Source of the DNA: Escherichia coli
Lineage (GTDB): Bacteria; Pseudomonadota; Gammaproteobacteria; Enterobacterales; Enterobacteriaceae
Length of the DNA: 64,000 nt
Reading direction: 5' to 3' (one strand)
Assembly: GCF_044324785.1 (NCBI RefSeq)
Contig: NZ_CP172127.1
Made by a program: the position numbers and the translations under genes. The first letter of the stretch is position 1; each line of letters opens with the position of its first letter. A model generated the notes under the pieces. That model was not told the origin of the DNA. It saw nothing but the letters and a program-made list of their open reading frames with translations, and searched no databases. Positions 1-12,461 of this stretch are shown one piece after another.

Positions 1-300
1 GGGATTTTGATAACTCACGAATGCCGTACCTGTTACGGCATTGTTCATAACGTGGATCCCATCGGTAATGACACCTTCATGACGGAGGCGCTCTATAATG
101 AGTCGGCCAAAATCATCATTACCAACACATCCGAAGAAGATGGCCCGATGGGACAGTTTTGCCACCTGAGCAGCAAAAATTGCTGGCGCACCGCTGGGAA
201 ATGGCCCGATAAACTCCCCAGGCTGAGTGAATTTTTGATGCGGGTTGCGGGACAAAAACTCGGCCAGCAATTCGCCCATAGCGCAGATAGTTATTGTCAC
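1..300 (-). CDS. PfkB-family carbohydrate kinase, N-terminal part only (gene runs off the left edge)
   Basis: Minus-strand frame open from GTG ~300 or ATG 279 down to position 1; translation MGELLAEFL...GPFPSGAPAIF...GCVGNDDFG...AVTGTAFVSY follows the same pattern as the N-terminus of the PfkB kinase at 5835-6797. Absent from the ORF track because no stop lies in the window. Confidence 0.55.
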   Translation of the reverse strand, partial: MTITICAMGELLAEFLSRNPHQKFTQPGEFIGPFPSGAPAIFAAQVAKLSHRAIFFGCVGNDDFGRLIIERLRHEGVITDGIHVMNNAVTGTAFVSYQNP

Positions 301-310
301 AAAACCCCTC

Positions 311-1141
311 TCATTCCTGAAGCCTTTCGCGATTGGACCAGGTAAAGCACTCATTACTGGTATAAAGGATAACGAAATCAGCCGACTGCAATTGTTGCTG
401 ATATTGTTCGTTAATGCTGCGGCTGACGATCACATTTTCTGCTTGATGCAAATGCCCGATAGCAGCCGTTGATGGCGCAGGATCGGCGGCAACGATAACC
501 GTCTTATTCTGGGCATTATCGAAACAGAGCTGCCAGGCAGCGGCAAGTCTGGGAACGTTGATATTTAAAGTACCATCAGCATCCAGATGGCTGATTTCCA
601 GAATGCTATGTGTAATGGTGAAATGCTGAAGTGCCTGTTCGAGAGGTTTTCCGGCCAGTGCGGTGTCGGGGCGCAGCATTTCACTGCCAGCCAGTATTAT
701 TTCGCCATCAATAAACTGATTTGCCAGCAGCGCATGTTCGGGATCGTTGGTGATCAGACGCAGTTTTTTCACTTCGCTGAGCAAAGGAATGATCTTACGG
801 CAGATTGTCCCATGTCCAAGAAATAGCGTGTCACGATCGCGAATTAATCGTGCGCAATGTCGTGCTATTTCCATTTGTTGTGCCAGAGACAACGGCGCGA
901 TCGGTTGTATCGCTTCTGGTTCAGAGGAGAGTGGTGTCGCAATAGCACCGCCAAATGATCGCTTTAAATATCCCTGTTGCTCCAGATAACTGAGATCGCC
1001 GCGGATCGTCACGCCAGAGACACCAAGTTGCGCAGATAAGTCATCAACTTTGATTTCACCCTGGGCGGCAACAATTTCTGCAATTTTTAATCTGCGTTTC
1101 AGTAAGTTAGACGATTTTCTCGGCACGTTAACACTCTTCAT
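311..1141 (-). CDS. DeoR-family transcriptional regulator (sugar operon repressor type)
   Basis: 276-aa ORF with N-terminal helix-turn-helix (LKIAEIVAAQGEIKVDDLSAQLGVSGVTIRGDLSYLEQQG) and a DeoR-like C-terminal domain; divergent from the aldolase/ABC operon; AAAGG 5 nt upstream of the ATG. Confidence 0.7.
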   Translation of the reverse strand: MKSVNVPRKSSNLLKRRLKIAEIVAAQGEIKVDDLSAQLGVSGVTIRGDLSYLEQQGYLKRSFGGAIATPLSSEPEAIQPIAPLSLAQQMEIARHCARLIRDRDTLFLGHGTICRKIIPLLSEVKKLRLITNDPEHALLANQFIDGEIILAGSEMLRPDTALAGKPLEQALQHFTITHSILEISHLDADGTLNINVPRLAAAWQLCFDNAQNKTVIVAADPAPSTAAIGHLHQAENVIVSRSINEQYQQQLQSADFVILYTSNECFTWSNRERLQE

Positions 1142-1310
1142 TGGCCTTTAATGCGTAACACTATAGCCCCTTGTATTTTTCTTTGAAAGTTATCCTTCAA
1201 TAATATCGACAATTCGAAAAGAAAAGCATGGGCTAAAAATCGCAACGAAAATATCTTAATACATTGAAAAATAAATGAATAACTTAATATTTATGCAGAT
1301 GTACTATTGG

Positions 1311-1329
1311 TTTCACTTGCAAAGTGAAA
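1311..1329. promoter_or_regulatory. Candidate operator: palindrome TTTCACTT-gca-AAGTGAAA in the divergent promoter region
   Basis: Perfect 8-bp inverted repeat with 3-bp spacer read directly in the AT-rich regulator/aldolase intergenic region; function inferred. Confidence 0.3.
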
Positions 1330-1413
1330 AACAAATTAAGTTATTTTTTGTAAGTTATTTTGATGATATTCGACATGCATCACGCTTTTTGCCGCTTTTG
1401 CTGTGTTAGTTTG

Positions 1414-1428
1414 CTTTCAAAATGAAAG
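1414..1428. promoter_or_regulatory. Candidate operator: palindrome CTTTCA-aaa-TGAAAG sharing the TTTCA/TGAAA half-sites
   Basis: Second inverted repeat with the same half-site, ~55 bp upstream of the aldolase start; function inferred. Confidence 0.3.
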
Positions 1429-1455
1429 TGAAGATTCTGTTTCTTCATTTTGTAA

Positions 1456-2337
<882 letters not shown>

Positions 2338-2372
2338 TACGTTGTACCCTACAAAAACAATGAGGATTGTTT

Positions 2373-3263
2373 ATGAAAAATATTAAATTACTTGGTTCAG
2401 CTATGTTGGTGAGCCTGGCATTATTCTCGCAAAGTTCATTGGCAAAAGAGTATAAAATCGGTGCGTCATTATTAACACAGCAACATCCTTTCTATATTGA
2501 TCTTGCGAATGCCATGAAAGAAGAGGCAAAAAAAGACAATGTCAATTTAAGTGTCTCTATTGCCAATCAGGATTTAAACAAACAACTTTCTGATGTTGAG
2601 GATTTTATTACTAAAAAAGTGGATGCCATTATTATCTCTCCGGTTGATTCGAAAGGCGTCCAGGCGGCGATAATTAAAGCCGATAAGGCCGGTATTCCCG
2701 TTATCACCGTCGACGTCGCTGCGGAAGGCGTTCCGGTCGTATCGCATGTTGCGACCGATAACTACGCGGGAGGCGTTGAAGCAGGCAAGTTAATGGGCAA
2801 ACTTTTGAATGGCAAAGGTACTGTAGCCATTATTTCTTATCCGGCACTACAATCGGTGGTTGCGCGCGTTGATGGTTTTAAGAAAGGGTTAAGCGAGACA
2901 CCGGATATTAAAATTGTTGCTGAACAACCAGGTATAACGCGGGCTGAAGCGTTAACGACTGCGCAAAACATTATGCAGGCCAACGCCAACCTGAATGGTC
3001 TGTTTGGCTTTGGTGATGATGCGGCGTTGGCAGCGGTTATCGCAGCGAAATCTGCGCATAACGACAACATCAAAATCATTGGTTTTGACGGCATGAAAGA
3101 AGCGCGTGATGCCGTTGACAGTGAAAAAACGTTTGCGGCCGTGATTCGGCAATATCCCGATCAAATGGGGGCTAAAGCCATTGATGCTGCTGTTGATCAC
3201 CTCAATGGTAAACCGGTAGAAAAAATGATCCCGGTACAACCCGGCGTTTATACAGGTAAATAA
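2373..3263 (+). CDS. Periplasmic sugar-binding protein of an ABC transporter (RbsB-like)
   Basis: ORF track starts at TTG 2367; ATG at 2373 with GAGGA 7 nt upstream is the likelier start. Signal peptide MKNIKLLGSAMLVSLALFSQSSLA; type I periplasmic binding protein pattern; visibly AT-rich. Confidence 0.8.
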   Translation: MKNIKLLGSAMLVSLALFSQSSLAKEYKIGASLLTQQHPFYIDLANAMKEEAKKDNVNLSVSIANQDLNKQLSDVEDFITKKVDAIIISPVDSKGVQAAIIKADKAGIPVITVDVAAEGVPVVSHVATDNYAGGVEAGKLMGKLLNGKGTVAIISYPALQSVVARVDGFKKGLSETPDIKIVAEQPGITRAEALTTAQNIMQANANLNGLFGFGDDAALAAVIAAKSAHNDNIKIIGFDGMKEARDAVDSEKTFAAVIRQYPDQMGAKAIDAAVDHLNGKPVEKMIPVQPGVYTGK

Positions 3264-3280
3264 TAAACATCTTCATTTCA

Positions 3281-3307
3281 CAACAAAACGTTATCGACGT
3301 TTTGTTG
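3281..3307 (+). other. Intercistronic stem-loop between the binding-protein and ATPase genes
   Basis: Perfect 10-bp inverted repeat CAACAAAACG-ttatcga-CGTTTTGTTG, 17 bp upstream of the ATPase start. Confidence 0.45.
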
Positions 3308-3323
3308 TGACACCGAGGTCATT

Positions 3324-4823
3324 ATGACGGATGTTATTCTTGATGTTTCGCATATTGCGAAGACATTTGGTCATGTTCAGGCATTAAAAAATATTACACT
3401 CTCTTTACGTAAAGGGCGGGTGCATACTTTATTAGGCGAGAATGGTGCCGGTAAATCGACATTAATGAAAATACTCGCCGGTGTTTATCCGCCAACCCAG
3501 GGAACGATAACACTACGTGGTGAAACCATCACCATTAATAATCCGCAGCATTCTCGCCAGTTAGGGATTGCGATTATTTTTCAGGAACTGAGCCTGAGTA
3601 ATAATATGACCGTGGCGGAAAATATCTATGCCAATAATGAACCGCGACGTTTTGGCATTATTAATGATAAAAAAATGCTCGCAGATTGCCAGAATCTCCT
3701 CGCGGAACTGGGCATCCCTCTGGATCCGCTGGAAATGGTCGGCAATATGTCGATGGCACATAGGCAACTGGTAGAAATTGCCAAAGCCTTAAGCTATGCA
3801 GCGGATGTCGTGATTATGGATGAACCGACATCTTCGCTAAGTGATAATGAAGCAGAGATTCTGTTTAACATTATTGAGAAATTAAAGCAGCGAGGTTGTG
3901 CGGTTATTTATATCTCTCATCGCATGGATGAAATTATGCGGATTTCAGATGATATTTCGGTGATCCGCGACGGTGAGTATATCGCTACGCATGAAAAGAA
4001 AAACAGTGATATCCAGCATTTGATTGCCCAAATGGTTGGTCGGGAAATGAAAAATATTTGGCCAGCACGTCTTGGGGAAAAGCCGGATGAAAATGTTCCT
4101 GCAAAACTGGAAGTAAAAAACCTTTCCCATCCCTCGCTTTTTAAAGAGGTCAGTTTCGCTGTGCGTCCGGGGGAAGTCCTTGGATTTTTTGGCCTGGTGG
4201 GAGCCGGGCGTTCCGATGTGATGAAGGCGCTATTTGGCCTCGTTTCGTATCACGGAACTGTGTTGATTGATGGTAAGGAAGTCAGGATCGCTAATCCCAA
4301 ACAGGCTATTGATCATGGCATTGCTTTTGTGACCGAAAACCGCAAGGAAGAAGGGTTAGTGCTGATGCACGACGTCAATATGAACACGCACCATGTGGCG
4401 TTTCAATATAACGCTTCGCGGATGGGACTCATCAATCACCGACAAGAAGAGGCGAAGACGCTGCAATCTATTGCCAGAATGAACACTAAAGTGAGTTCTG
4501 TACATCAGGCAGTGGGAGCGCTGAGCGGCGGTAATCAACAGAAAATCGTGTTATCGAAGTGGCTGGAGAAAACTCCGCGTATTTTATTGCTCGATGAGCC
4601 AACGCGCGGAGTGGATGTCGGCGCAAAATTTGAAATCTATAACGTGATACGTCAACTGGCTGCGGCAGGGACAGCAATTATTCTGGTGTCCTCTGAACTG
4701 CCAGAAGTCATGGCACTTAGCGATCGTCTGGTGGTAATGCGTAATAAAACGATTGCCGATATTTATTCATGTGAAAATTTAACGCAGACACAGGTAATGA
4801 CCGCTGCAACAGGAGTACGTTAA
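3324..4823 (+). CDS. Sugar ABC transporter ATP-binding protein with two nucleotide-binding domains (RbsA/MglA-like)
   Basis: 499-aa ORF with two Walker A motifs (GENGAGKST and GLVGAGRS) and two LSGGxQQ-type signatures; AT-rich. Confidence 0.85.
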   Translation: MTDVILDVSHIAKTFGHVQALKNITLSLRKGRVHTLLGENGAGKSTLMKILAGVYPPTQGTITLRGETITINNPQHSRQLGIAIIFQELSLSNNMTVAENIYANNEPRRFGIINDKKMLADCQNLLAELGIPLDPLEMVGNMSMAHRQLVEIAKALSYAADVVIMDEPTSSLSDNEAEILFNIIEKLKQRGCAVIYISHRMDEIMRISDDISVIRDGEYIATHEKKNSDIQHLIAQMVGREMKNIWPARLGEKPDENVPAKLEVKNLSHPSLFKEVSFAVRPGEVLGFFGLVGAGRSDVMKALFGLVSYHGTVLIDGKEVRIANPKQAIDHGIAFVTENRKEEGLVLMHDVNMNTHHVAFQYNASRMGLINHRQEEAKTLQSIARMNTKVSSVHQAVGALSGGNQQKIVLSKWLEKTPRILLLDEPTRGVDVGAKFEIYNVIRQLAAAGTAIILVSSELPEVMALSDRLVVMRNKTIADIYSCENLTQTQVMTAATGVR

Positions 4824-5813
4824 ATGACAGAGAAAACTCTTGCCAGTCCGAAACCTTCGGAAATACCCATTGCAAATAATTTTAAAAAAGTCTTCAGGCA
4901 ATATGGCGGTATCCTCAGTGGAATGGTGGTGTTAATCATTCTGTTCAGTTTTATTAATGACAGTTTTTTTACTGCCAATAACATTACTAATATTATTCTT
5001 CAGGTTTCGATAATTGCAATTACCGCCTATGGAATGACTTATGTACTTTTGCTTGGCGATATTGATTTATCGGTCGGTTCAACCATTGCATTGATTGGCA
5101 CATTTGCTGCGCTTGGGGCTTCATGGGGAATTCCATTTATTTTATTGGTCCCATTATCCATTATTGCAGCCCTGGCTCTGGGGATGATAAATGGTGGCTT
5201 GACGGCTATAGCGGGTATCCCTTCGTTTATTGTCACCGTTGCTACTATGGGGATCTTCCGTGGTATCGCTTATATAGTGACCGATGGTATGCCCATCATG
5301 ATTAAAGATGATGCCTTTCTGGCGCTGGGGAATGGAGAATTTCTCTATATACCTATTCCAATCTGGATATTAATTATCTTATTGCTGATTAACCATTTCA
5401 TTCTTACTAAAACAACCTTTGGACGAAAAATTTATATCACTGGTGGTAATAAAGAAGCGGCAGTTTATTCAGGGATAAATGTCACCCGCTTGAAAATAAA
5501 AGTCTTTATGATTACAGCTGTGCTGGCAGGTATCAGCGGGATGATCCTCGCGTCACGCCTTTATTCCGGGCAACCGAATTCCGCGTTGAGCTACGAACTG
5601 GATGCTATTGCCGCGGCTGTACTGGGAGGCACCAGCCTGAACGGCGGCTATGGAACCGTGGTGGGGACGGTGATCGGCGCATTAACCATCGGCGTTATTA
5701 ATAATGGCATGAACTTAATGAATGTTCCCTATTTTTACCAGATGGTGGTTAAAGGATTAGTCATTCTTGTAGCCGTTTATTTTGACGTAAGAAATAAAAG
5801 AAAACGCAGCTAA
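4824..5813 (+). CDS. Sugar ABC transporter permease (RbsC/AraH-like)
   Basis: 329-aa hydrophobic ORF; ATG directly follows the ATPase TAA, implying translational coupling. Confidence 0.85.
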   Translation: MTEKTLASPKPSEIPIANNFKKVFRQYGGILSGMVVLIILFSFINDSFFTANNITNIILQVSIIAITAYGMTYVLLLGDIDLSVGSTIALIGTFAALGASWGIPFILLVPLSIIAALALGMINGGLTAIAGIPSFIVTVATMGIFRGIAYIVTDGMPIMIKDDAFLALGNGEFLYIPIPIWILIILLLINHFILTKTTFGRKIYITGGNKEAAVYSGINVTRLKIKVFMITAVLAGISGMILASRLYSGQPNSALSYELDAIAAAVLGGTSLNGGYGTVVGTVIGALTIGVINNGMNLMNVPYFYQMVVKGLVILVAVYFDVRNKRKRS

Positions 5814-5834
5814 TCATTTCAAGGAATTAATCAT

Positions 5835-6797
5835 ATGAGTAAGGTCTTCACAATTGGAGAAATTCTGGTTGAAATTATGGCGAGTAAAATCGGCCAGCCA
5901 TTTGATCAACCAGGTATCTGGAACGGCCCTTATCCCAGTGGTGCGCCCGCTATTTTTATCGACCAGGTGACACGTCTTGGCGTTCCGTGCGGCATCATTA
6001 GTTGTGTGGGGAATGATGGCTTTGGTGATATTAATATACATCGTCTGGCTGCTGACGGTGTGGATATCAGGGGGATTTCAGTCTTACCTCTGGAAGCTAC
6101 CGGGAGTGCCTTTGTTACTTATCATAACTCTGGCGATCGCGATTTTATTTTTAATATCAAGAATGCCGCTTGCGGTAAATTATCGGCGCAGCATGTTGAT
6201 GAAAATATTCTGAAGGACTGTACCCATTTTCATATTATGGGTTCATCCCTGTTTTCATTCCATATGGTAGACGCAGTAAAGAAAGCGGTAACCATTGTAA
6301 AGGAGAATGGTGGCGTTATTTCTTTCGACCCTAATATTCGGAAAGAGATGCTCGATATTCCAGAAATGCGTGACGCCCTCCACTTTGTTCTTGAGTTAAC
6401 AGATATCTATATGCCCAGCGAGGGAGAAGTGTTGCTCTTGTCGCCACACTCGACACCGGAGCGTGCAATCGCTGGTTTTCTTGAAGAAGGTGTTAAAGAG
6501 GTGATTGTGAAGCGCGGCAATCAAGGTGCCAGTTACTACTCCGCGAATGAGCAGTTTCATGTTGAGAGCTATCCGGTGGAAGAAGTTGACCCGACCGGTG
6601 CGGGAGACTGCTTTGGTGGCGCGTGGATTGCCTGCCGCCAGCTAGGGTTTGACGCCCATCGGGCATTACAATATGCCAACGCCTGCGGTGCACTGGCGGT
6701 AACCCGACGTGGTCCAATGGAGGGAACGTCTCGCCTTGCGGAAATCGAAGCGTTCATCCAGCGCCATGACATGTCCATTCGGGAAGCAGCACAATGA
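5835..6797 (+). CDS. PfkB-family sugar kinase (ribokinase/fructokinase-like)
   Basis: 320-aa ORF; AAGGA upstream; N-terminal glycine-rich motif and C-terminal DPTGAGDCFGGAW anion-hole/catalytic motif typical of the PfkB family. Confidence 0.8.
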   Translation: MSKVFTIGEILVEIMASKIGQPFDQPGIWNGPYPSGAPAIFIDQVTRLGVPCGIISCVGNDGFGDINIHRLAADGVDIRGISVLPLEATGSAFVTYHNSGDRDFIFNIKNAACGKLSAQHVDENILKDCTHFHIMGSSLFSFHMVDAVKKAVTIVKENGGVISFDPNIRKEMLDIPEMRDALHFVLELTDIYMPSEGEVLLLSPHSTPERAIAGFLEEGVKEVIVKRGNQGASYYSANEQFHVESYPVEEVDPTGAGDCFGGAWIACRQLGFDAHRALQYANACGALAVTRRGPMEGTSRLAEIEAFIQRHDMSIREAAQ

Positions 6798-7840
6798 AAA
6801 ACGAAATTTGGTCGTGGATTGGCGATCTCTCGCAGGTTGCCGGAATTAAACACTATGAGTTACGTAGTGGCAGAGCAAAGGGGACAGAAGCGTTTGATGT
6901 CCGTACCGGTGCGGGACTGGCATTTACGGTGGTAAAAGATCGCGCGCTGGATATTGCATGGGCCAGCTACAAGGACACTGCGCTCTCTTTTATCACCCCC
7001 AACGGCATTGTCGCCCCCGCTTTTTTTGAGTCTCAGGGCAACGGGTTTTTACGTAGCTTCTACGCGGGGTTACTGACTACCTGCGGACTTAGCTACATTG
7101 GCACGCCCTGTGAGGATGACGGAGAAACGCTGGGGTTACACGGGCGTTTGGCTGCGACTCCAGCAGAAGAGGTGGGGTATCGCACAGAACGGACCGACGA
7201 CGGCATTGAATTTGTCATCAATGGCAAAGTACGGGAAACACGATTGTTCGGTGAAAATCTGACGCTGGAAAGGACCATTCGCTGCCGCTATGGCGAAAAT
7301 GTGCTGCGCATTGAAGACAAGGTGACTAATCATGGTTTCACCCGCCAGCCGCTGCAAATTCTTTATCACTTTAATTACGGCTGGCCTTTATTATCGCCAC
7401 AGGCAGAAATTTTGCTGTCGGCTAAAAGCGTAACGCCACGAACTCCGCATGCGGCGGAAGGGATAGCCAGTCATCTGGAGATTTGTACCCCACAGCCCGG
7501 TTTTGACGAGCAGGTTTACTATCTCACGTTGAATAGTGACAGTCAGGGGATGAGTAAAGTTGCGCTGGTGAACGCTGAACTGGGGTGGGGAATTTACGAG
7601 AAATTCGACACCATGCAGCTACCCAACTTTATCCAGTGGAAAAATTTAGGCGCGGGTGAATATGTTATGGGGCTGGAGGTCAGCAATAGTTTTCCTGACG
7701 GTCGTGATAAAGAACGAGCGCAGGGGCGTCTGCCCTTTATAGAGCCAGGGGAAACAAAGACATACTGCTTTGAGCTGGGAATTGTTGATGGCGATGCTGA
7801 AATTAGCGCGTTGAAAGCGGAAATTGCAAGCTACCGTTAG
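6794..7840 (+). CDS. Aldose 1-epimerase (mutarotase)-like protein, uncharacterised
   Basis: 348-aa ORF overlapping the kinase stop by ATGA; contains LYHFNYGWP and GLEVSNSFPD...PGE motifs reminiscent of galactose mutarotase-fold proteins; assignment from motif recall only. Confidence 0.5.
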   Translation: MKNEIWSWIGDLSQVAGIKHYELRSGRAKGTEAFDVRTGAGLAFTVVKDRALDIAWASYKDTALSFITPNGIVAPAFFESQGNGFLRSFYAGLLTTCGLSYIGTPCEDDGETLGLHGRLAATPAEEVGYRTERTDDGIEFVINGKVRETRLFGENLTLERTIRCRYGENVLRIEDKVTNHGFTRQPLQILYHFNYGWPLLSPQAEILLSAKSVTPRTPHAAEGIASHLEICTPQPGFDEQVYYLTLNSDSQGMSKVALVNAELGWGIYEKFDTMQLPNFIQWKNLGAGEYVMGLEVSNSFPDGRDKERAQGRLPFIEPGETKTYCFELGIVDGDAEISALKAEIASYR

Positions 7841-7850
7841 CTAACGGCAA

Positions 7851-7886
7851 TAAAAACGCCGGGCAGCGTTAACAGGCCCGGCGTTG
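7851..7886 (-). terminator. Rho-independent terminator downstream of accC, shared with the convergent sugar operon
   Basis: 10-bp stem AACGCCGGGC/GCCCGGCGTT with 11-nt loop, followed on the minus strand by TTTTTATT. Confidence 0.5.
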
Positions 7887-7931
7887 ATTACGTTCTTTGC
7901 TAAGCGCGATGAAAACACCGCGCGTCACAAA

Positions 7932-9281
7932 TTATTTTTCCTGAAGACCGAGTTTTTTCTCCAGATAGTGGATGTTAGTGCCACCATGCTGGAAGTTCTC
8001 GTCATTCATGATGCGGATCTGCAGATCAACGTTGGTTTTGATACCGTCGATGATCAGCTCCTGCAGCGCATTCTTCATGCGGGCAATCGCCACGTCACGG
8101 TTTTCACCGTAGCAAATCAGCTTACCGATCATTGAGTCATAGTACGGCGGTACGGTGTAGCCCGCGTAGATATGAGACTCCCAACGCACGCCAAAACCGC
8201 CTGGTGCGTGGAAACGGGTGATTTTGCCCGGGCTTGGCAGGAAGGTGTTCGGATCTTCGGCGTTGATACGGCATTCCACCGCATGGCCGCGAACGTGAAC
8301 TTCTTCTTGCTTGATCGACAGCGGTTGACCGGCAGCGATACGCAGCTGTTCTTTGATCAGGTCAACGCCGGTGATCATTTCGGTAACCGGATGTTCTACC
8401 TGAATACGGGTGTTCATTTCGATGAAATAGAACTCGCCGTTTTCGAACAGGAACTCGAAAGTACCTGCGCCGCGATAGCCGATATCAACACACGCTTTAG
8501 CACAACGTTCGCCGATGTAGCGACGCAGTTCCGGAGTAATGCCCGGTGCTGGTGCTTCTTCGACCACTTTCTGGTGGCGGCGCTGCATGGAGCAGTCACG
8601 TTCCGCCAGATAGATAGCGTTGCCCTGACCGTCAGCCAGTACCTGAATCTCGACGTGGCGAGGATTTTCCAGGTATTTCTCCATGTAAACCATATCGTTG
8701 CTGAAAGCAGCTTTCGCTTCCGCACGGGTCATGGAGATGGATTGTGCCAGTTCAGCGTCGCCGCGCACTACGCGCATACCGCGACCGCCGCCGCCGCCGG
8801 AGGCTTTGATAATTACCGGATAACCAATGCGTTTAGCAATGGCGCGGTTTTTATCCATATCGTCGCCCAGCGGGCCGTCAGAACCCGGTACGCAAGGAAC
8901 GCCAGCTTTTTTCATCGCCGCGATTGCGGATACTTTGTCGCCCATCAGGCGAATGGTTTCTGCTTTCGGGCCAATGAAGATAAAGCCGGAGCGTTCAACC
9001 TGTTCAGCAAAGTTGGCGTTCTCGGAGAGGAAGCCGTAGCCCGGATGGATTGCTACTGCGCCGGTGATTTCAGCGGCGCTGATGATTGCCGGGATGTTCA
9101 GATAACTTTTTACTGACGGAGCAGGGCCGATACAGACCGTTTCATCTGCCAGTAATACGTGTTTTAAATCGCGATCCGCGCTGGAGTGCACAGCGACAGT
9201 CTTGATGCCCAATTCTTTACAGGCACGAAGAATACGCAATGCAATCTCGCCGCGGTTGGCAATAACAATTTTATCCAGCAT
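7932..9281 (-). CDS. accC: Biotin carboxylase subunit of acetyl-CoA carboxylase
   Basis: 449-aa protein from [16 protein letters not shown] (ORF track has a 13-codon N-terminal extension); GAGG RBS; sequence recognised as E. coli AccC. Confidence 0.95.
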
Positions 9282-9762: not shown

Positions 9763-10525
9763 GAGTGGGTTCCGTACTCTTTGTTTAGTGTGATTGTGAC
9801 AGGCGTTTCACCGCCGTCTGTAAAGCGTATGCCCCGACAGCTGTATGCATAGCGATAAATTCCAGCAGGCCGGGACGCCGGTCTATTTTGCCCCAGAGTG
9901 TCAATGTTAGACTTGACGGACATTGTGCAGCGATCTGCTGCTATCCTCCGGCAAAAAACAAAATATACCTTCGTTGCGCCAATGTCACCTTTTCCGCAGC
10001 GCAAAAACTGCGTCAGGGAGGACGAGGTCGCACATTATAACGATTTCGTAGCAATTGGCAGCTAAATACTGGTCTTATCAGGGAAGATAATCAACAGCTA
10101 ACATGTAAATAACCTTCAACACCGTGTAATTTGCAACAAGCCGCACAATTCACGAAATTAGCGCCATCATCGACGGAACTTCTTATAACGTAAGGCTAAA
10201 AGCTGTAAAGCCAGCCCTGCGAAGATGAGGGGCTGCAATGAGATAATCTTCACAGACCACAAATAATGTAGGGATGCCAGGATCGCGACAAGATCGACGA
10301 CATTACGCAGCGGTTGCTGGGGATTGCCCAATTTTCACTGCATCGTCTGGATAAATGTGAATGCTAAAGCACGCAAAATCAACCGCCTGACAATGCTCAG
10401 CATGAAATAGGTTTAACTGGTTAATTTGTAATCAAACAAAATCAGATTATTCCCCCCATTTTGCAGAAGGTAAACTGTTTTGTCAGGCGGCAGTACGGCT
10501 ATGTGATGCACTGCCGCGTGACAAT

Positions 10526-10554
10526 AAAAAAGCCGATTTGGTAGCAAAATCGGC
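10526..10554 (-). terminator. Rho-independent terminator after the 276-aa gene
   Basis: Stem GCCGAT(TTG)/(CAAA)ATCGGC followed on the minus strand by a T-run (plus-strand AAAAAA at 10526-10531); a second hairpin GCGGCAGT...ACTGCCGC lies at ~10487-10517. Confidence 0.5.
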
Positions 10555-10619
10555 TTCGGTGAGTTTGCAGCATTCATCACATACTCCGACAAGCTTTTTC
10601 AAGCATGACGGAGGTTGCG

Positions 10620-11450
10620 TTAATGCAAGGTTTCTACCCAGGGATAAAAGTGACCGTTACGGCGGATGAATATCTGTGTTGTCAGAGGATGGTCATCCTC
10701 ACGGAAGCATTGTTCTGTTAACTGTCGTAATGCGCTGAGATTTGCTGGCTGATCATTGTGGGTGAAAAACAGTTTTCCTCTGGAGGGAACTGTCACTAAC
10801 AGGTCGCCGCATTCAGGATCGGGTGATTGCACCCAAAGATCGTCAATGAGCATCAGACTGGGCTCATAAGTACCCCCTGCGGAGATAACGGCAACTTTTC
10901 CATCGTTTGCGCCGGTATCAACGATTTCAGCCGTAACTTCCGGCAATATTTGCTTCAAATTACTGATGGCTTGTTCGCGGTCAATGGTCACTTCGCAGCG
11001 CATCAGATAGCGCATGGTTTCGCTACCGTCTTCAGCAAACAGGATAATTAACTCATCGTTAAAGTCTTCCCAGGCAAAATCAAGCGAGGCGTTGAGGACC
11101 TCTGGATCAGACTCATACTGGCTAAGCTGTTGGCGAACGGTATCCAGCCAGGCTTTTTCTTTAATCACCGGGACAATACAGCGCCCGGTCGGCAGCATTT
11201 CTGCAAGCTGTTTCAGCATATCTGCAGCCACTTCTTCCAGCGGGTCTGGTGCGGCTTGATAACGTTTGTAAGCATCATCAAGGGTGATTTCCACCGTTTG
11301 GTGACCCGTATCAATGCGCATCAATTTATGGTCAGTCGAAATCATGACTTTCCAGTTTGGATGATGTTGTACAACTTCCTGACCAAGGTGTTCGACGAAA
11401 GCTGTCAGGCTAACCGCTTTTCCCGTTAACCGATTGAATAATGATTTCAA
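10620..11450 (-). CDS. Hypothetical protein, 276 aa, unknown function
   Basis: Long uninterrupted ORF; TTG start with GAGAGGG ~8 nt upstream, 37 bp downstream of acuI in the same orientation; own terminator; acidic, no predicted membrane segment; I cannot assign a family by recall. Confidence 0.6.
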   Translation of the reverse strand: MKSLFNRLTGKAVSLTAFVEHLGQEVVQHHPNWKVMISTDHKLMRIDTGHQTVEITLDDAYKRYQAAPDPLEEVAADMLKQLAEMLPTGRCIVPVIKEKAWLDTVRQQLSQYESDPEVLNASLDFAWEDFNDELIILFAEDGSETMRYLMRCEVTIDREQAISNLKQILPEVTAEIVDTGANDGKVAVISAGGTYEPSLMLIDDLWVQSPDPECGDLLVTVPSRGKLFFTHNDQPANLSALRQLTEQCFREDDHPLTTQIFIRRNGHFYPWVETLH

Positions 11451-11486
11451 AATGAGTTCCCTCTCTTATTAATCCTTGCTAAATGG

Positions 11487-12461
11487 TTAGTTAACCTTCA
11501 CCAGCGTGCGACCCTGGATCTGGTTATTAATGATGGCCTCGGCAAATTTCGGTGCCTCTGCCAGAGATATTTCTTTTGCCGCCTGGGTATAGAATGATTC
11601 CGGTAAATCGGCGACCAGTCGCTGCCAGGCTTGTGCGCGGCGTGCTGGTGGCGTCATCACTGAATCCACCCCCTGTAAACGGACATTACGCAGAATAAAT
11701 GGCATGACCGTGGTTGGCAGAGTAAAACCACCCGCCAGACCACAGGCCGCCACGCAGCCGCCGTAATTCATTTGCGCCAGCACTTTTGCCAGCACTTTGT
11801 CGCCAACGGTGTCAATTGCCCCAGCCCAGAGTTGTTTTTCCAGAGGACGGGATTCGGCAAACTCATCGCGAGGGAGAATACGGCTGGCACCTAAACTTTT
11901 CAGATATTCATGGGTACTTTCGCGACCGGAAACGGCAACGACCTGATAACCCAATTTATGCAGCAGCGCCACGGCGGTACTGCCGACGCCACCACTGGCA
12001 CCCGTTACGACAATCTCGCCGTCCTGCGGGCGAACACCGGCATCTTCCAGCGCCATCACACACAGCATGGCGGTAAAACCGGCAGTACCGATAATCATTG
12101 CTTTACGCGCGTCCAGCCCTTGCGGCATGGCAACCAGCCAGTCACCTTTCACTCGCGCCTGCTCCGCCAGCCCACCCCAGTGGTTTTCACCAACGCCCCA
12201 GCCAGTGAGTAATACCTCCTGACCGGCATGAAAACGCGGATCTTCGCTGGTGCGTACAGTTCCGGCAAAATCGATCCCAGGAATCATCGGAAAATTACGG
12301 ATGATTTTTCCCTTACCGGTAATTGCCAGCGCATCTTTGTAGTTCAGGCTCGACCAGTGAACATCAACCGTGACATCGCCCTCCGGCAGGCGACTTTCGT
12401 CCAGAGTCTGTACCGATGCGAGAGTTTTGCCGTCCTGCTGTTCTAAAAGTAACGCCTGCAT
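11487..12461 (-). CDS. acuI: Acrylyl-CoA reductase (zinc-type alcohol dehydrogenase family)
   Basis: 324-aa ORF recognised as E. coli YhdH/AcuI; divergent from csrD. Confidence 0.9.
   Translation of the reverse strand: MQALLLEQQDGKTLASVQTLDESRLPEGDVTVDVHWSSLNYKDALAITGKGKIIRNFPMIPGIDFAGTVRTSEDPRFHAGQEVLLTGWGVGENHWGGLAEQARVKGDWLVAMPQGLDARKAMIIGTAGFTAMLCVMALEDAGVRPQDGEIVVTGASGGVGSTAVALLHKLGYQVVAVSGRESTHEYLKSLGASRILPRDEFAESRPLEKQLWAGAIDTVGDKVLAKVLAQMNYGGCVAACGLAGGFTLPTTVMPFILRNVRLQGVDSVMTPPARRAQAWQRLVADLPESFYTQAAKEISLAEAPKFAEAIINNQIQGRTLVKVN

Follow-up and report, generated by a model that had tools for sequence, protein, structure and literature searches.

An Escherichia coli Locus Corresponding to the Published D-Tagatose Utilization Region and the Pairing of Its DeoR-Type Regulator with a Tagatose Kinase-Like Protein

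Genomic Location and Identity of the tag Locus

The left end (positions 1–7840) of a 64,000-nucleotide stretch of Escherichia coli DNA (NCBI RefSeq assembly GCF_044324785.1, contig NZ_CP172127.1), referred to below as the window, carries eight genes arranged in two divergent operons, tagR-tagK and tagY-A-B-C-D-E, with kinase genes of the published lengths (963 and 936 bp). With little room for doubt, this interval is the horizontally acquired D-tagatose utilization locus tagKR-tagYABCDE of E. coli, inserted between yhdT and accC. Four of the genes (two PfkB-type kinases, a class II aldolase and the last gene of the longer operon) had been named by a first-pass annotation made from the sequence alone, and all four are real and lie where it placed them; its title, however, left out the DeoR-type regulator (311–1141) and three ATP-binding cassette (ABC) transporter genes (2373–5813), which are members of the same unit.

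The tag locus is already published, and finding it again adds no new biology. In the literature, two studies, by Ha et al. 2022 (PMC9720028) and by Park et al. 2025 (PMC12226905), deal with this locus in E. coli Nissle 1917. The Nissle region spans 8.5 kb at the accC/yhdT site and is missing from K-12 (PMC9720028). One strand carries six genes, coding for a tagatose-bisphosphate aldolase, a substrate-binding protein, an ABC ATPase, a permease, a sugar kinase (963 bp) and a protein of the aldose-1-epimerase family, while a DeoR/GlpR regulator and another sugar kinase (936 bp), which shares 51% identity with the former, are encoded on the opposite strand (PMC9720028). The spacer between the two divergent gene sets is 341 bp in length (PMC9720028, PMC12226905).

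The window shares the insertion site, the eight genes, and their order, orientations and lengths with Nissle, and the differences are allelic only. Sequence comparison revealed that the Nissle allele and the allele common to the window and E. coli strain N3 are both 8497 bp long, collinear and 97.6% identical, with 201 substitutions, 2–9 amino acid changes per protein, one mismatch per operator, and all eight open reading frames (ORFs) intact. The ratios of nonsynonymous to synonymous substitution rates (dN/dS, Nei–Gojobori) between these alleles range from 0.03 to 0.22 for the eight tag genes, with the highest value observed for tagE (0.22) and a value of 0.12 for both tagK and tagR. Strain N3 is 100% identical to positions 1–7900 of the window, and its annotation around the locus (yhdT, tagK ... 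tagE, accC) gives the same arrangement as that of Nissle. In total, the locus is present in 1422 of the 5426 complete E. coli genomes (~26%) at 95–99% identity, with a query coverage of at least 80% in 1419 of them. The G+C content of the interval is 45.9%, compared to 51.0% in the remaining window, which is consistent with horizontal acquisition. Since the site, genes, spacer, promoters, CRP site, operators and the 97.6% identity all agree, the identification is as secure as sequence comparison allows. Strains of phylogroups B2 and F, among them the probiotic Nissle and many extraintestinal pathogens, can use the sweetener D-tagatose for growth thanks to this locus, which has also served to build a tagatose-inducible expression system.

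Table 1. Genes and predicted regulatory elements of the tag locus (positions in the window).
Feature	Position	Strand	Basis
tagK, PfkB kinase, N-terminal 100 codons	1..300	-	PfkB domain PF00294; remainder past the window edge
tagR, DeoR/GlpR-family repressor of the tag operon	311..1141	-	Pfam HTH_DeoR and DeoRC
Divergent control region tagR/tagY, 341 bp	1142..1482		Length identical in Nissle; 22 substitutions
Preg promoter, TTCAAA-16-TATAGT	1160..1187	-	Consensus scan and exact pattern match; hexamers as in PMC12226905
Predicted CRP site, TTCGA-N6-TCACG	1369..1384	+	Exact match to the published site (PMC12226905)
Ptag promoter, -35 TTTTTG, 15-bp spacer, -10 TAGTTT	1386..1412	+	Hexamers and spacing exactly as in PMC12226905
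tagO1, predicted TagR operator over the transcription start site	1414..1432	+	18/19 bases of published tagO1
tagO2, second predicted TagR operator, inverted	1438..1456	-	18/19 bases of published tagO2; unique match in the window
tagY, class II D-tagatose-1,6-bisphosphate aldolase, GatY-like	1483..2337	+	NCBIfam TIGR01858, GatY subfamily; PDB 1GVF
tagA, periplasmic sugar-binding protein, RbsB-like	2373..3263	+	RefSeq start; NCBIfam RbsB 160.9 bits, under cut-off
tagB, ABC ATPase, two ATP-binding domains	3324..4823	+	XylG/AraG/RbsA 512–556 bits, all under equivalog cut-offs
tagC, ABC permease, AraH/RbsC-like	4824..5813	+	NCBIfam ~280 bits, under cut-offs
tagD, D-tagatose kinase (to tagatose-6-phosphate), 320 aa	5835..6797	+	Pfam PfkB; NF049991; published Nissle deletion
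tagE, DUF4432 protein, galactose-mutarotase fold, 348 aa	6794..7840	+	Pfam DUF4432; AlphaFold; Foldseek

TagY scores above the curated cut-offs of both TIGR01858 (477.6 bits; cut-off, 443.55) and the GatY subfamily model NF009374 (529.7 bits; cut-off, 383), and matches the structure of AgaY (PDB 1GVF; E-value, 5.7e-104), in agreement with the tagatose-bisphosphate-type class II aldolase proposed for this gene in the first-pass annotation. TagA, TagB and TagC are similar to the ABC systems for ribose, arabinose and xylose, and none of the three reaches an NCBIfam equivalog cut-off; for tagA, an alternative TTG start is found at position 2367. TagR, published as a tagatose-responsive repressor (PMC12226905), contains the PF08220 (HTH_DeoR) and PF00455 (DeoRC) domains at residues 16–67 and 88–219, respectively, and differs from its Nissle counterpart by three amino acids.

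The Divergent Control Region

All of the promoter elements reported for Nissle can be located between tagR and tagY. The transcription start site of Preg, published 11 nt upstream of tagR, maps to ~1152, and that of Ptag, 64 nt upstream of tagY, to ~1419 (PMC12226905). The tagO1 match is unique in the window, and none is expected from shuffled sequences. In each of the nine intergenic regions examined (the window and eight other loci), the aldolase gene is closely preceded by inverted half-site pairs resembling TTTCAAAATGAAAG.

The Two Sugar Kinases

TagD and TagK both contain the PF00294 domain and share 51% identity over 311 residues (E-value, 5e-116), which is far beyond chance and makes them paralogues, as the first-pass annotation had recognized. 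That annotation based its conclusion on N-terminal motifs, two of which are indeed shared by the kinases (GPFPSGAPAIF/GPYPSGAPAIF and CVGNDDFG/CVGNDGFG), while the third, AVTGxAFVxY, is exact only in the kinase at the left edge (AVTGTAFVSY; EATGSAFVTY in TagD). NCBIfam NF049991, "tagatose kinase", is the best match of both proteins, by a wide margin in the case of TagD. Neither reaches its equivalog cut-off of 420 bits (TagD, 413.9; TagK, 343.7, or 346.9 with the corrected start), and the role of TagD rests on the published tagD deletion (PMC9720028). On TIGR03168, the model of FruK/LacC/PfkB hexose-phosphate kinases with a cut-off of 216.4 bits, the scores of TagK (50.5) and TagD (46.0) are far lower. 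By these profile comparisons, both kinases are assigned to the tagatose-kinase family and not to the LacC/PfkB/FruK family. The protein in PDB 3IQ0/3K9E, entered as "putative ribokinase II", is nearly identical to TagD (E-value, 1.7e-217), so a crystal structure of a genetically defined tagatose kinase is already available, although its name does not reveal this.

The complete tagK was recovered, as the first-pass annotation had advised, from the adjoining sequence by way of N3 (positions 5344–6300 of the retrieved N3 locus); it is intact and has no internal stops (311 or 318 codons, depending on the start). A pseudogene at the left edge is ruled out, the full ORF being intact in both N3 and Nissle and matching the tagatose-kinase model from end to end.

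A practical detail concerns the start of tagK. RefSeq places it at the ATG at position 279 (311 amino acids), whereas the GTG at position 300 yields a product of 318 amino acids. The latter is favored by a GAGGGG Shine–Dalgarno sequence located 4 nt upstream, by the N-terminus of the orthologues, as all of the eight K-clade proteins (see below) begin with the MxxxIC(T/A)xGELL motif that the 318-residue form reproduces, and by the length of the 99%-identical TagK cluster representative (318 amino acids), which stands for 2662 sequences. With this start, the match to the tagatose-kinase model is three positions longer, and the score rises from 343.7 to 346.9 bits. Thus, tagK probably starts at GTG 300, and the RefSeq start is probably seven codons too short.

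TagE and the DUF4432 Family

The sole Pfam match of TagE is DUF4432 (E-value, 2.3e-104), and the ATG of its gene overlaps the TGA of tagD as ATGA (6794–6797), just as the first-pass annotation had noticed. The AlphaFold model of TagE has a mean predicted local distance difference test (pLDDT) value of 97.5. The top Foldseek hit of this model is an uncharacterized Klebsiella protein (3TY1; template modeling (TM) score, 0.91), followed by galactose mutarotases and a hexose-6-phosphate mutarotase (TM, 0.55–0.66; probability, 1.00), with the GalM proteins of Bacillus subtilis, Lactococcus lactis and human at TM 0.55–0.63 (probability, 1.00). Owing to these matches to galactose mutarotases, the earlier description of the gene as mutarotase-like holds at the level of fold. 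It does not extend to sequence: TagE matches neither Aldose_epim (PF01263) in Pfam nor any NCBIfam family, and the DUF4432 family profile gave no significant alignment with E. coli GalM (probability, 0.2). In an alignment of 76 DUF4432 members, out of 3214 representatives at E-values of at most 0.001, H116, H192 and E295, candidates for the catalytic His/His/Glu set, are near-invariant, these positions being read from the family alignment. For a family with no assigned reaction, the confidently predicted mutarotase fold is a useful practical detail.

The position of tagE differs among related loci. In Serratia fonticola, whose ABC-type tag locus is also found at the accC/yhdT site, a gene for a GatZ/KbaZ-like protein of 436 amino acids occupies it (locus L010, positions 750–2060), and in Yersinia pseudotuberculosis, no gene is found at this position.

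Tagatose is mostly in the pyranose form, with O6 locked in the ring, and a 6-kinase would therefore need the furanose or open-chain form of the sugar. TagE may accordingly be seen as a candidate accessory mutarotase-type enzyme, which would probably speed the interconversion of tagatose ring forms. RbsD plays an analogous role for ribose. Alternatively, TagE might interconvert the anomers of tagatose-6-phosphate, as hexose-6-phosphate mutarotases do.

Published Genetics and the Proposed Pathway

In Nissle, deletion of the six-gene operon, or of tagD alone (in frame, with tagK intact), abolishes both growth on tagatose and its consumption (PMC9720028). When supplied on a plasmid, the six genes, without tagK, confer growth on tagatose on K-12, B and W strains (four laboratory strains), and this growth requires host pfkA but not pfkB (PMC9720028). 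Tagatose induces tagYAB more than 1000-fold and tagRK about 2-fold (PMC9720028). A single transcription start site has been assigned to each operon, and Ptag is repressed when TagR is overexpressed (PMC12226905).

According to these genetic data on the Nissle allele, TagABC takes up free D-tagatose, TagD converts it to tagatose-6-phosphate, and the C1 phosphate is added by the housekeeping phosphofructokinase PfkA, encoded elsewhere in the genome. Cleavage of the resulting tagatose-1,6-bisphosphate to dihydroxyacetone phosphate and glyceraldehyde-3-phosphate is assigned to TagY. The DeoR-type TagR, expressed from the divergent, near-constitutive tagRK operon, keeps Ptag off until tagatose arrives, with catabolite control added by the predicted CRP site. 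The reaction order suggested in the first-pass annotation, in which an imported ketose receives one phosphate at C6 and then a second at C1 before cleavage by a class II aldolase, is that of the published pathway (PMC9720028), and the substrate, given there as unknown, is tagatose, the first of the candidates it listed (PMC9720028).

Several points weigh against parts of this scheme. The function in this particular strain is carried over from the 97.6%-identical Nissle allele, and may be taken as probable on that ground. The published support for the pathway is genetic only and includes no in vitro enzyme assays (PMC9720028). TagD scores 6 bits under the NF049991 equivalog cut-off. The requirement for PfkA was seen in K-12 carrying tagYABCDE only, so that TagK may still play a part in strains that carry it naturally. 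Being absent in Yersinia and replaced in Serratia, TagE appears to be dispensable or replaceable, and hence accessory. Finally, the roles proposed here for TagK and TagE are inferences only.

Conservation of the DeoR–TagK Pair and Possible Roles of TagK

A homology search with TagK returned proteins that are 56–90% identical to it, and thus nearer than its paralogue TagD (51%). The genomic context was looked up for seven of these homologues, giving, together with the E. coli window, eight species of Enterobacterales and Orbales. In all of them (8/8), the TagK-type gene lies directly after a DeoR gene, and the pair is divergent from an operon that begins with an aldolase gene, whether the uptake system is of the ABC or the phosphotransferase system (PTS) type. 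The ABC-type operons, each with a D-type kinase, are those of E. coli, Klebsiella huaxiensis, S. fonticola and Y. pseudotuberculosis, and the last gene encodes a DUF4432 protein in the first two and differs in the others as described above. PTS-type operons, found in Klebsiella pneumoniae, Salmonella enterica, Cedecea neteri and Gilliamella apicola, consist of genes for the aldolase, a FruK-like kinase of 304–306 amino acids, EIIBC and EIIA, with gat genes located downstream in K. pneumoniae and S. enterica. Such operons do not form tagatose-6-phosphate, and they should need no free-tagatose kinase for catabolism. In these four species, TTTCAAAATGAAAG-like inverted half-sites are located upstream of the aldolase gene, and the pair of DeoR and TagK-type genes is divergent.

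Sequence comparison separates two kinase clades, a regulator-linked clade K (57–87% identity within) and an ABC-linked clade D (73–86% within). Identity between the clades is 48–57%, and that of either clade to the FruK-like kinases is 15–20%. The alignment of K and D proteins contains 104 invariant columns, including all of the motif blocks, and 18 fixed clade-specific differences, among them (K to D) A88E, P110K, R144H and H225E. The segment DPTGAGDCFG, which holds the catalytic GAGD motif, is invariant in 12 of the 12 K- and D-clade sequences. Judged by gene order and sequence, the DeoR–TagK pair acts like a unit that accompanies tagatose operons whatever their uptake route, an observation that is new relative to the two papers on the Nissle locus. 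Park et al. 2025 (PMC12226905) refers to tagK and tagE solely when naming the genes, and a literature search on STM3251/STM3252, DUF4432 and "tagatose kinase" found no functional data for TagK-type kinases or TagE.

TagK, a member of the tagatose-kinase lineage, may be an active kinase that carries no pathway flux and works with the repressor. DeoR-family regulators that have been characterized (DeoR, GlpR, FruR, LacR, UlaR and IolR) generally sense phosphorylated intermediates of their pathways. Taken together with the modular behavior of the DeoR–TagK pair, this habit of the family suggests that TagK may form or remove the sugar or sugar-phosphate effector to which TagR responds. As a tentative possibility, TagK, made constitutively with TagR, might phosphorylate the first tagatose to enter the cell into the compound that releases TagR (e.g., tagatose-6-phosphate), or it might drain the effector and thereby set the threshold of induction. 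Co-transcription of tagK and tagR from a single, near-constitutive start site (PMC9720028, PMC12226905) argues for such a role, as does the retention of the pair beside both ABC- and PTS-type tagatose operons with related operators in each of the eight species. The K clade is, moreover, distinct from the catabolic D clade, with which its identity is as low as 48–57% and from which it is set apart by the 18 fixed differences, and TagK is unable to replace TagD for growth (PMC9720028). This inability could, however, be explained by low expression alone. The authors of the expression system assume that free tagatose is the inducer (PMC12226905), and the transport product of the PTS-type systems, tagatose-1-phosphate, could induce without any additional kinase; the proposal itself is inferred throughout. 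In its general form, the idea that TagK is the sensing arm of a portable DeoR–kinase module, attached by enterobacteria to tagatose operons of either uptake type, is likewise considered to be possible but doubtful. The yeast Gal3 protein, a sugar sensor derived from a kinase, would be a loose analogue of a sensing TagK.

Alternatively, the substrate of TagK could be a different sugar related to tagatose (psicose, sorbose, fructose or a deoxy-ketose), which would feed into TagY and make the locus multi-substrate. The fixed clade-specific substitutions inside conserved blocks (A88 vs. E, P110 vs. K, R144 vs. H, and residues after GAGDCFG) are in line with a shift in specificity of this kind, and TagK scores ~67 bits lower than TagD on the tagatose-kinase model. 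However, all of the motif blocks belong to the 104 columns in which the K and D proteins do not vary, the tag locus has no further transporter linked to it, and tagK lies outside the inducible operon. This explanation is regarded as unlikely.

Least probable, and in our judgment improbable, is the model of the first-pass annotation, in which the two paralogous kinases carry out both phosphorylations, with TagD making tagatose-6-phosphate and TagK adding the C1 phosphate in a self-contained tagatose-6-phosphate pathway. It is true that the operon itself encodes no tagatose-6-phosphate kinase, that TagK is intact, retains the GAGD motif, is under purifying selection (dN/dS, 0.12) and adjoins the aldolase operon in every species checked, and that the need for PfkA was shown in a host that has no tagK (PMC9720028). 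Nevertheless, the four laboratory strains grow when given only the six genes and no tagK, with the host pfkA providing for the second step, and the loss of tagD alone stops the growth of Nissle in spite of its intact tagK (PMC9720028). TagK scores only 50.5 bits on TIGR03168, the hexose-phosphate kinase model, against 346.9 bits on that of the free-sugar tagatose kinases, and its gene belongs to the operon of the repressor, with an induction by tagatose of only about 2-fold compared to more than 1000-fold for tagYAB (PMC9720028). In addition, TagK-type genes stand beside PTS-only operons (Cedecea, Gilliamella), where the intermediate is tagatose-1-phosphate and a FruK-like kinase is present. 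In Salmonella, deletion of the FruK-like kinase gene STM3254, which has also been reported as essential for the use of galactitol, leads to loss of growth on tagatose despite the adjoining TagK-type gene (PMC7972205).

With regard to the tentative view of TagK as a partner of the repressor, the conservation of the DeoR–TagK pair makes the role of TagK and the identity of the TagR effector a small and well-posed question for tuning the tagatose-inducible system.

Flanks of the Locus

The window and N3 agree base for base as far as position 8381, which lies in accC, and diverge beyond it. An 848-bp segment (10460–11307) between accB and acuI is present in the window and not in N3, and the interval 9763–11490 is covered to at least 80% in only 666 of the 5426 complete genomes, with a best identity of 98.5%. 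The pattern suggests, at the sequence level, a recombination mosaic adjoining the tag locus. The minus strand of the same region (10620–11450, between accB and acuI) carries an ORF of 276 codons, whose product is annotated elsewhere as a "hypothetical protein" beside a YedZ-like pseudogene; the NCBIfam search with this product returned only a weak match to an uncharacterized family (22.9 bits; cut-off, 221).

Between tagE and accC, a GC-rich hairpin followed by a T-run is found on the minus strand (7855–7870), and there is no plus-strand T-run after tagE. The hairpin looks like the terminator of accC, and would mark the right boundary of the inserted island.

Comparison with Known Tagatose Systems

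An ABC-type D-tagatose pathway has been described in Sinorhizobium meliloti and Agrobacterium tumefaciens (PMC9720028). Like the tag locus, it combines a sugar ABC transporter with a PfkB-type tagatose kinase that yields tagatose-6-phosphate, which is there epimerized to fructose-6-phosphate by an enzyme of the GatZ/KbaZ family. The E. coli system instead employs phosphorylation by PfkA and a class II aldolase, and has the DUF4432 gene at the position of the epimerase.

The PTS-type tagatose/galactitol regulon of Klebsiella and Salmonella (STM3253–3262 region; PMC7972205) resembles the tag locus in its aldolase-first operon, which is divergent from the genes for DeoR and a TagK-type kinase (56–59% identical to TagK) and is preceded by similar half-sites. 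It differs in that uptake is by a fructose-type PTS, that a FruK-like kinase of 304 amino acids (15–20% identical to TagD/TagK) takes the place of the ABC transporter and TagD, and that there is no DUF4432 gene.

TagY has been reported to be 63.7% identical to GatY (PMC9720028). The gat operon of E. coli K-12 (GatYZ), similar to tag, borrows PfkA for C1 phosphorylation, but relies on a galactitol PTS, the dehydrogenase GatD and a required partner protein, GatZ. No GatZ homologue is encoded in the E. coli tag locus, whereas the version in S. fonticola has one.

The lacABCD pathway of Gram-positive bacteria is fed from galactose-6-phosphate and employs the LacC kinase (FruK/PfkB subfamily) and the class I aldolase LacD. 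It shares with tag the sequence of intermediates leading from tagatose-6-phosphate through tagatose-1,6-bisphosphate to triose phosphates, and differs from it in the dedicated LacC kinase, in the class I type of its aldolase, and in a source other than free tagatose.

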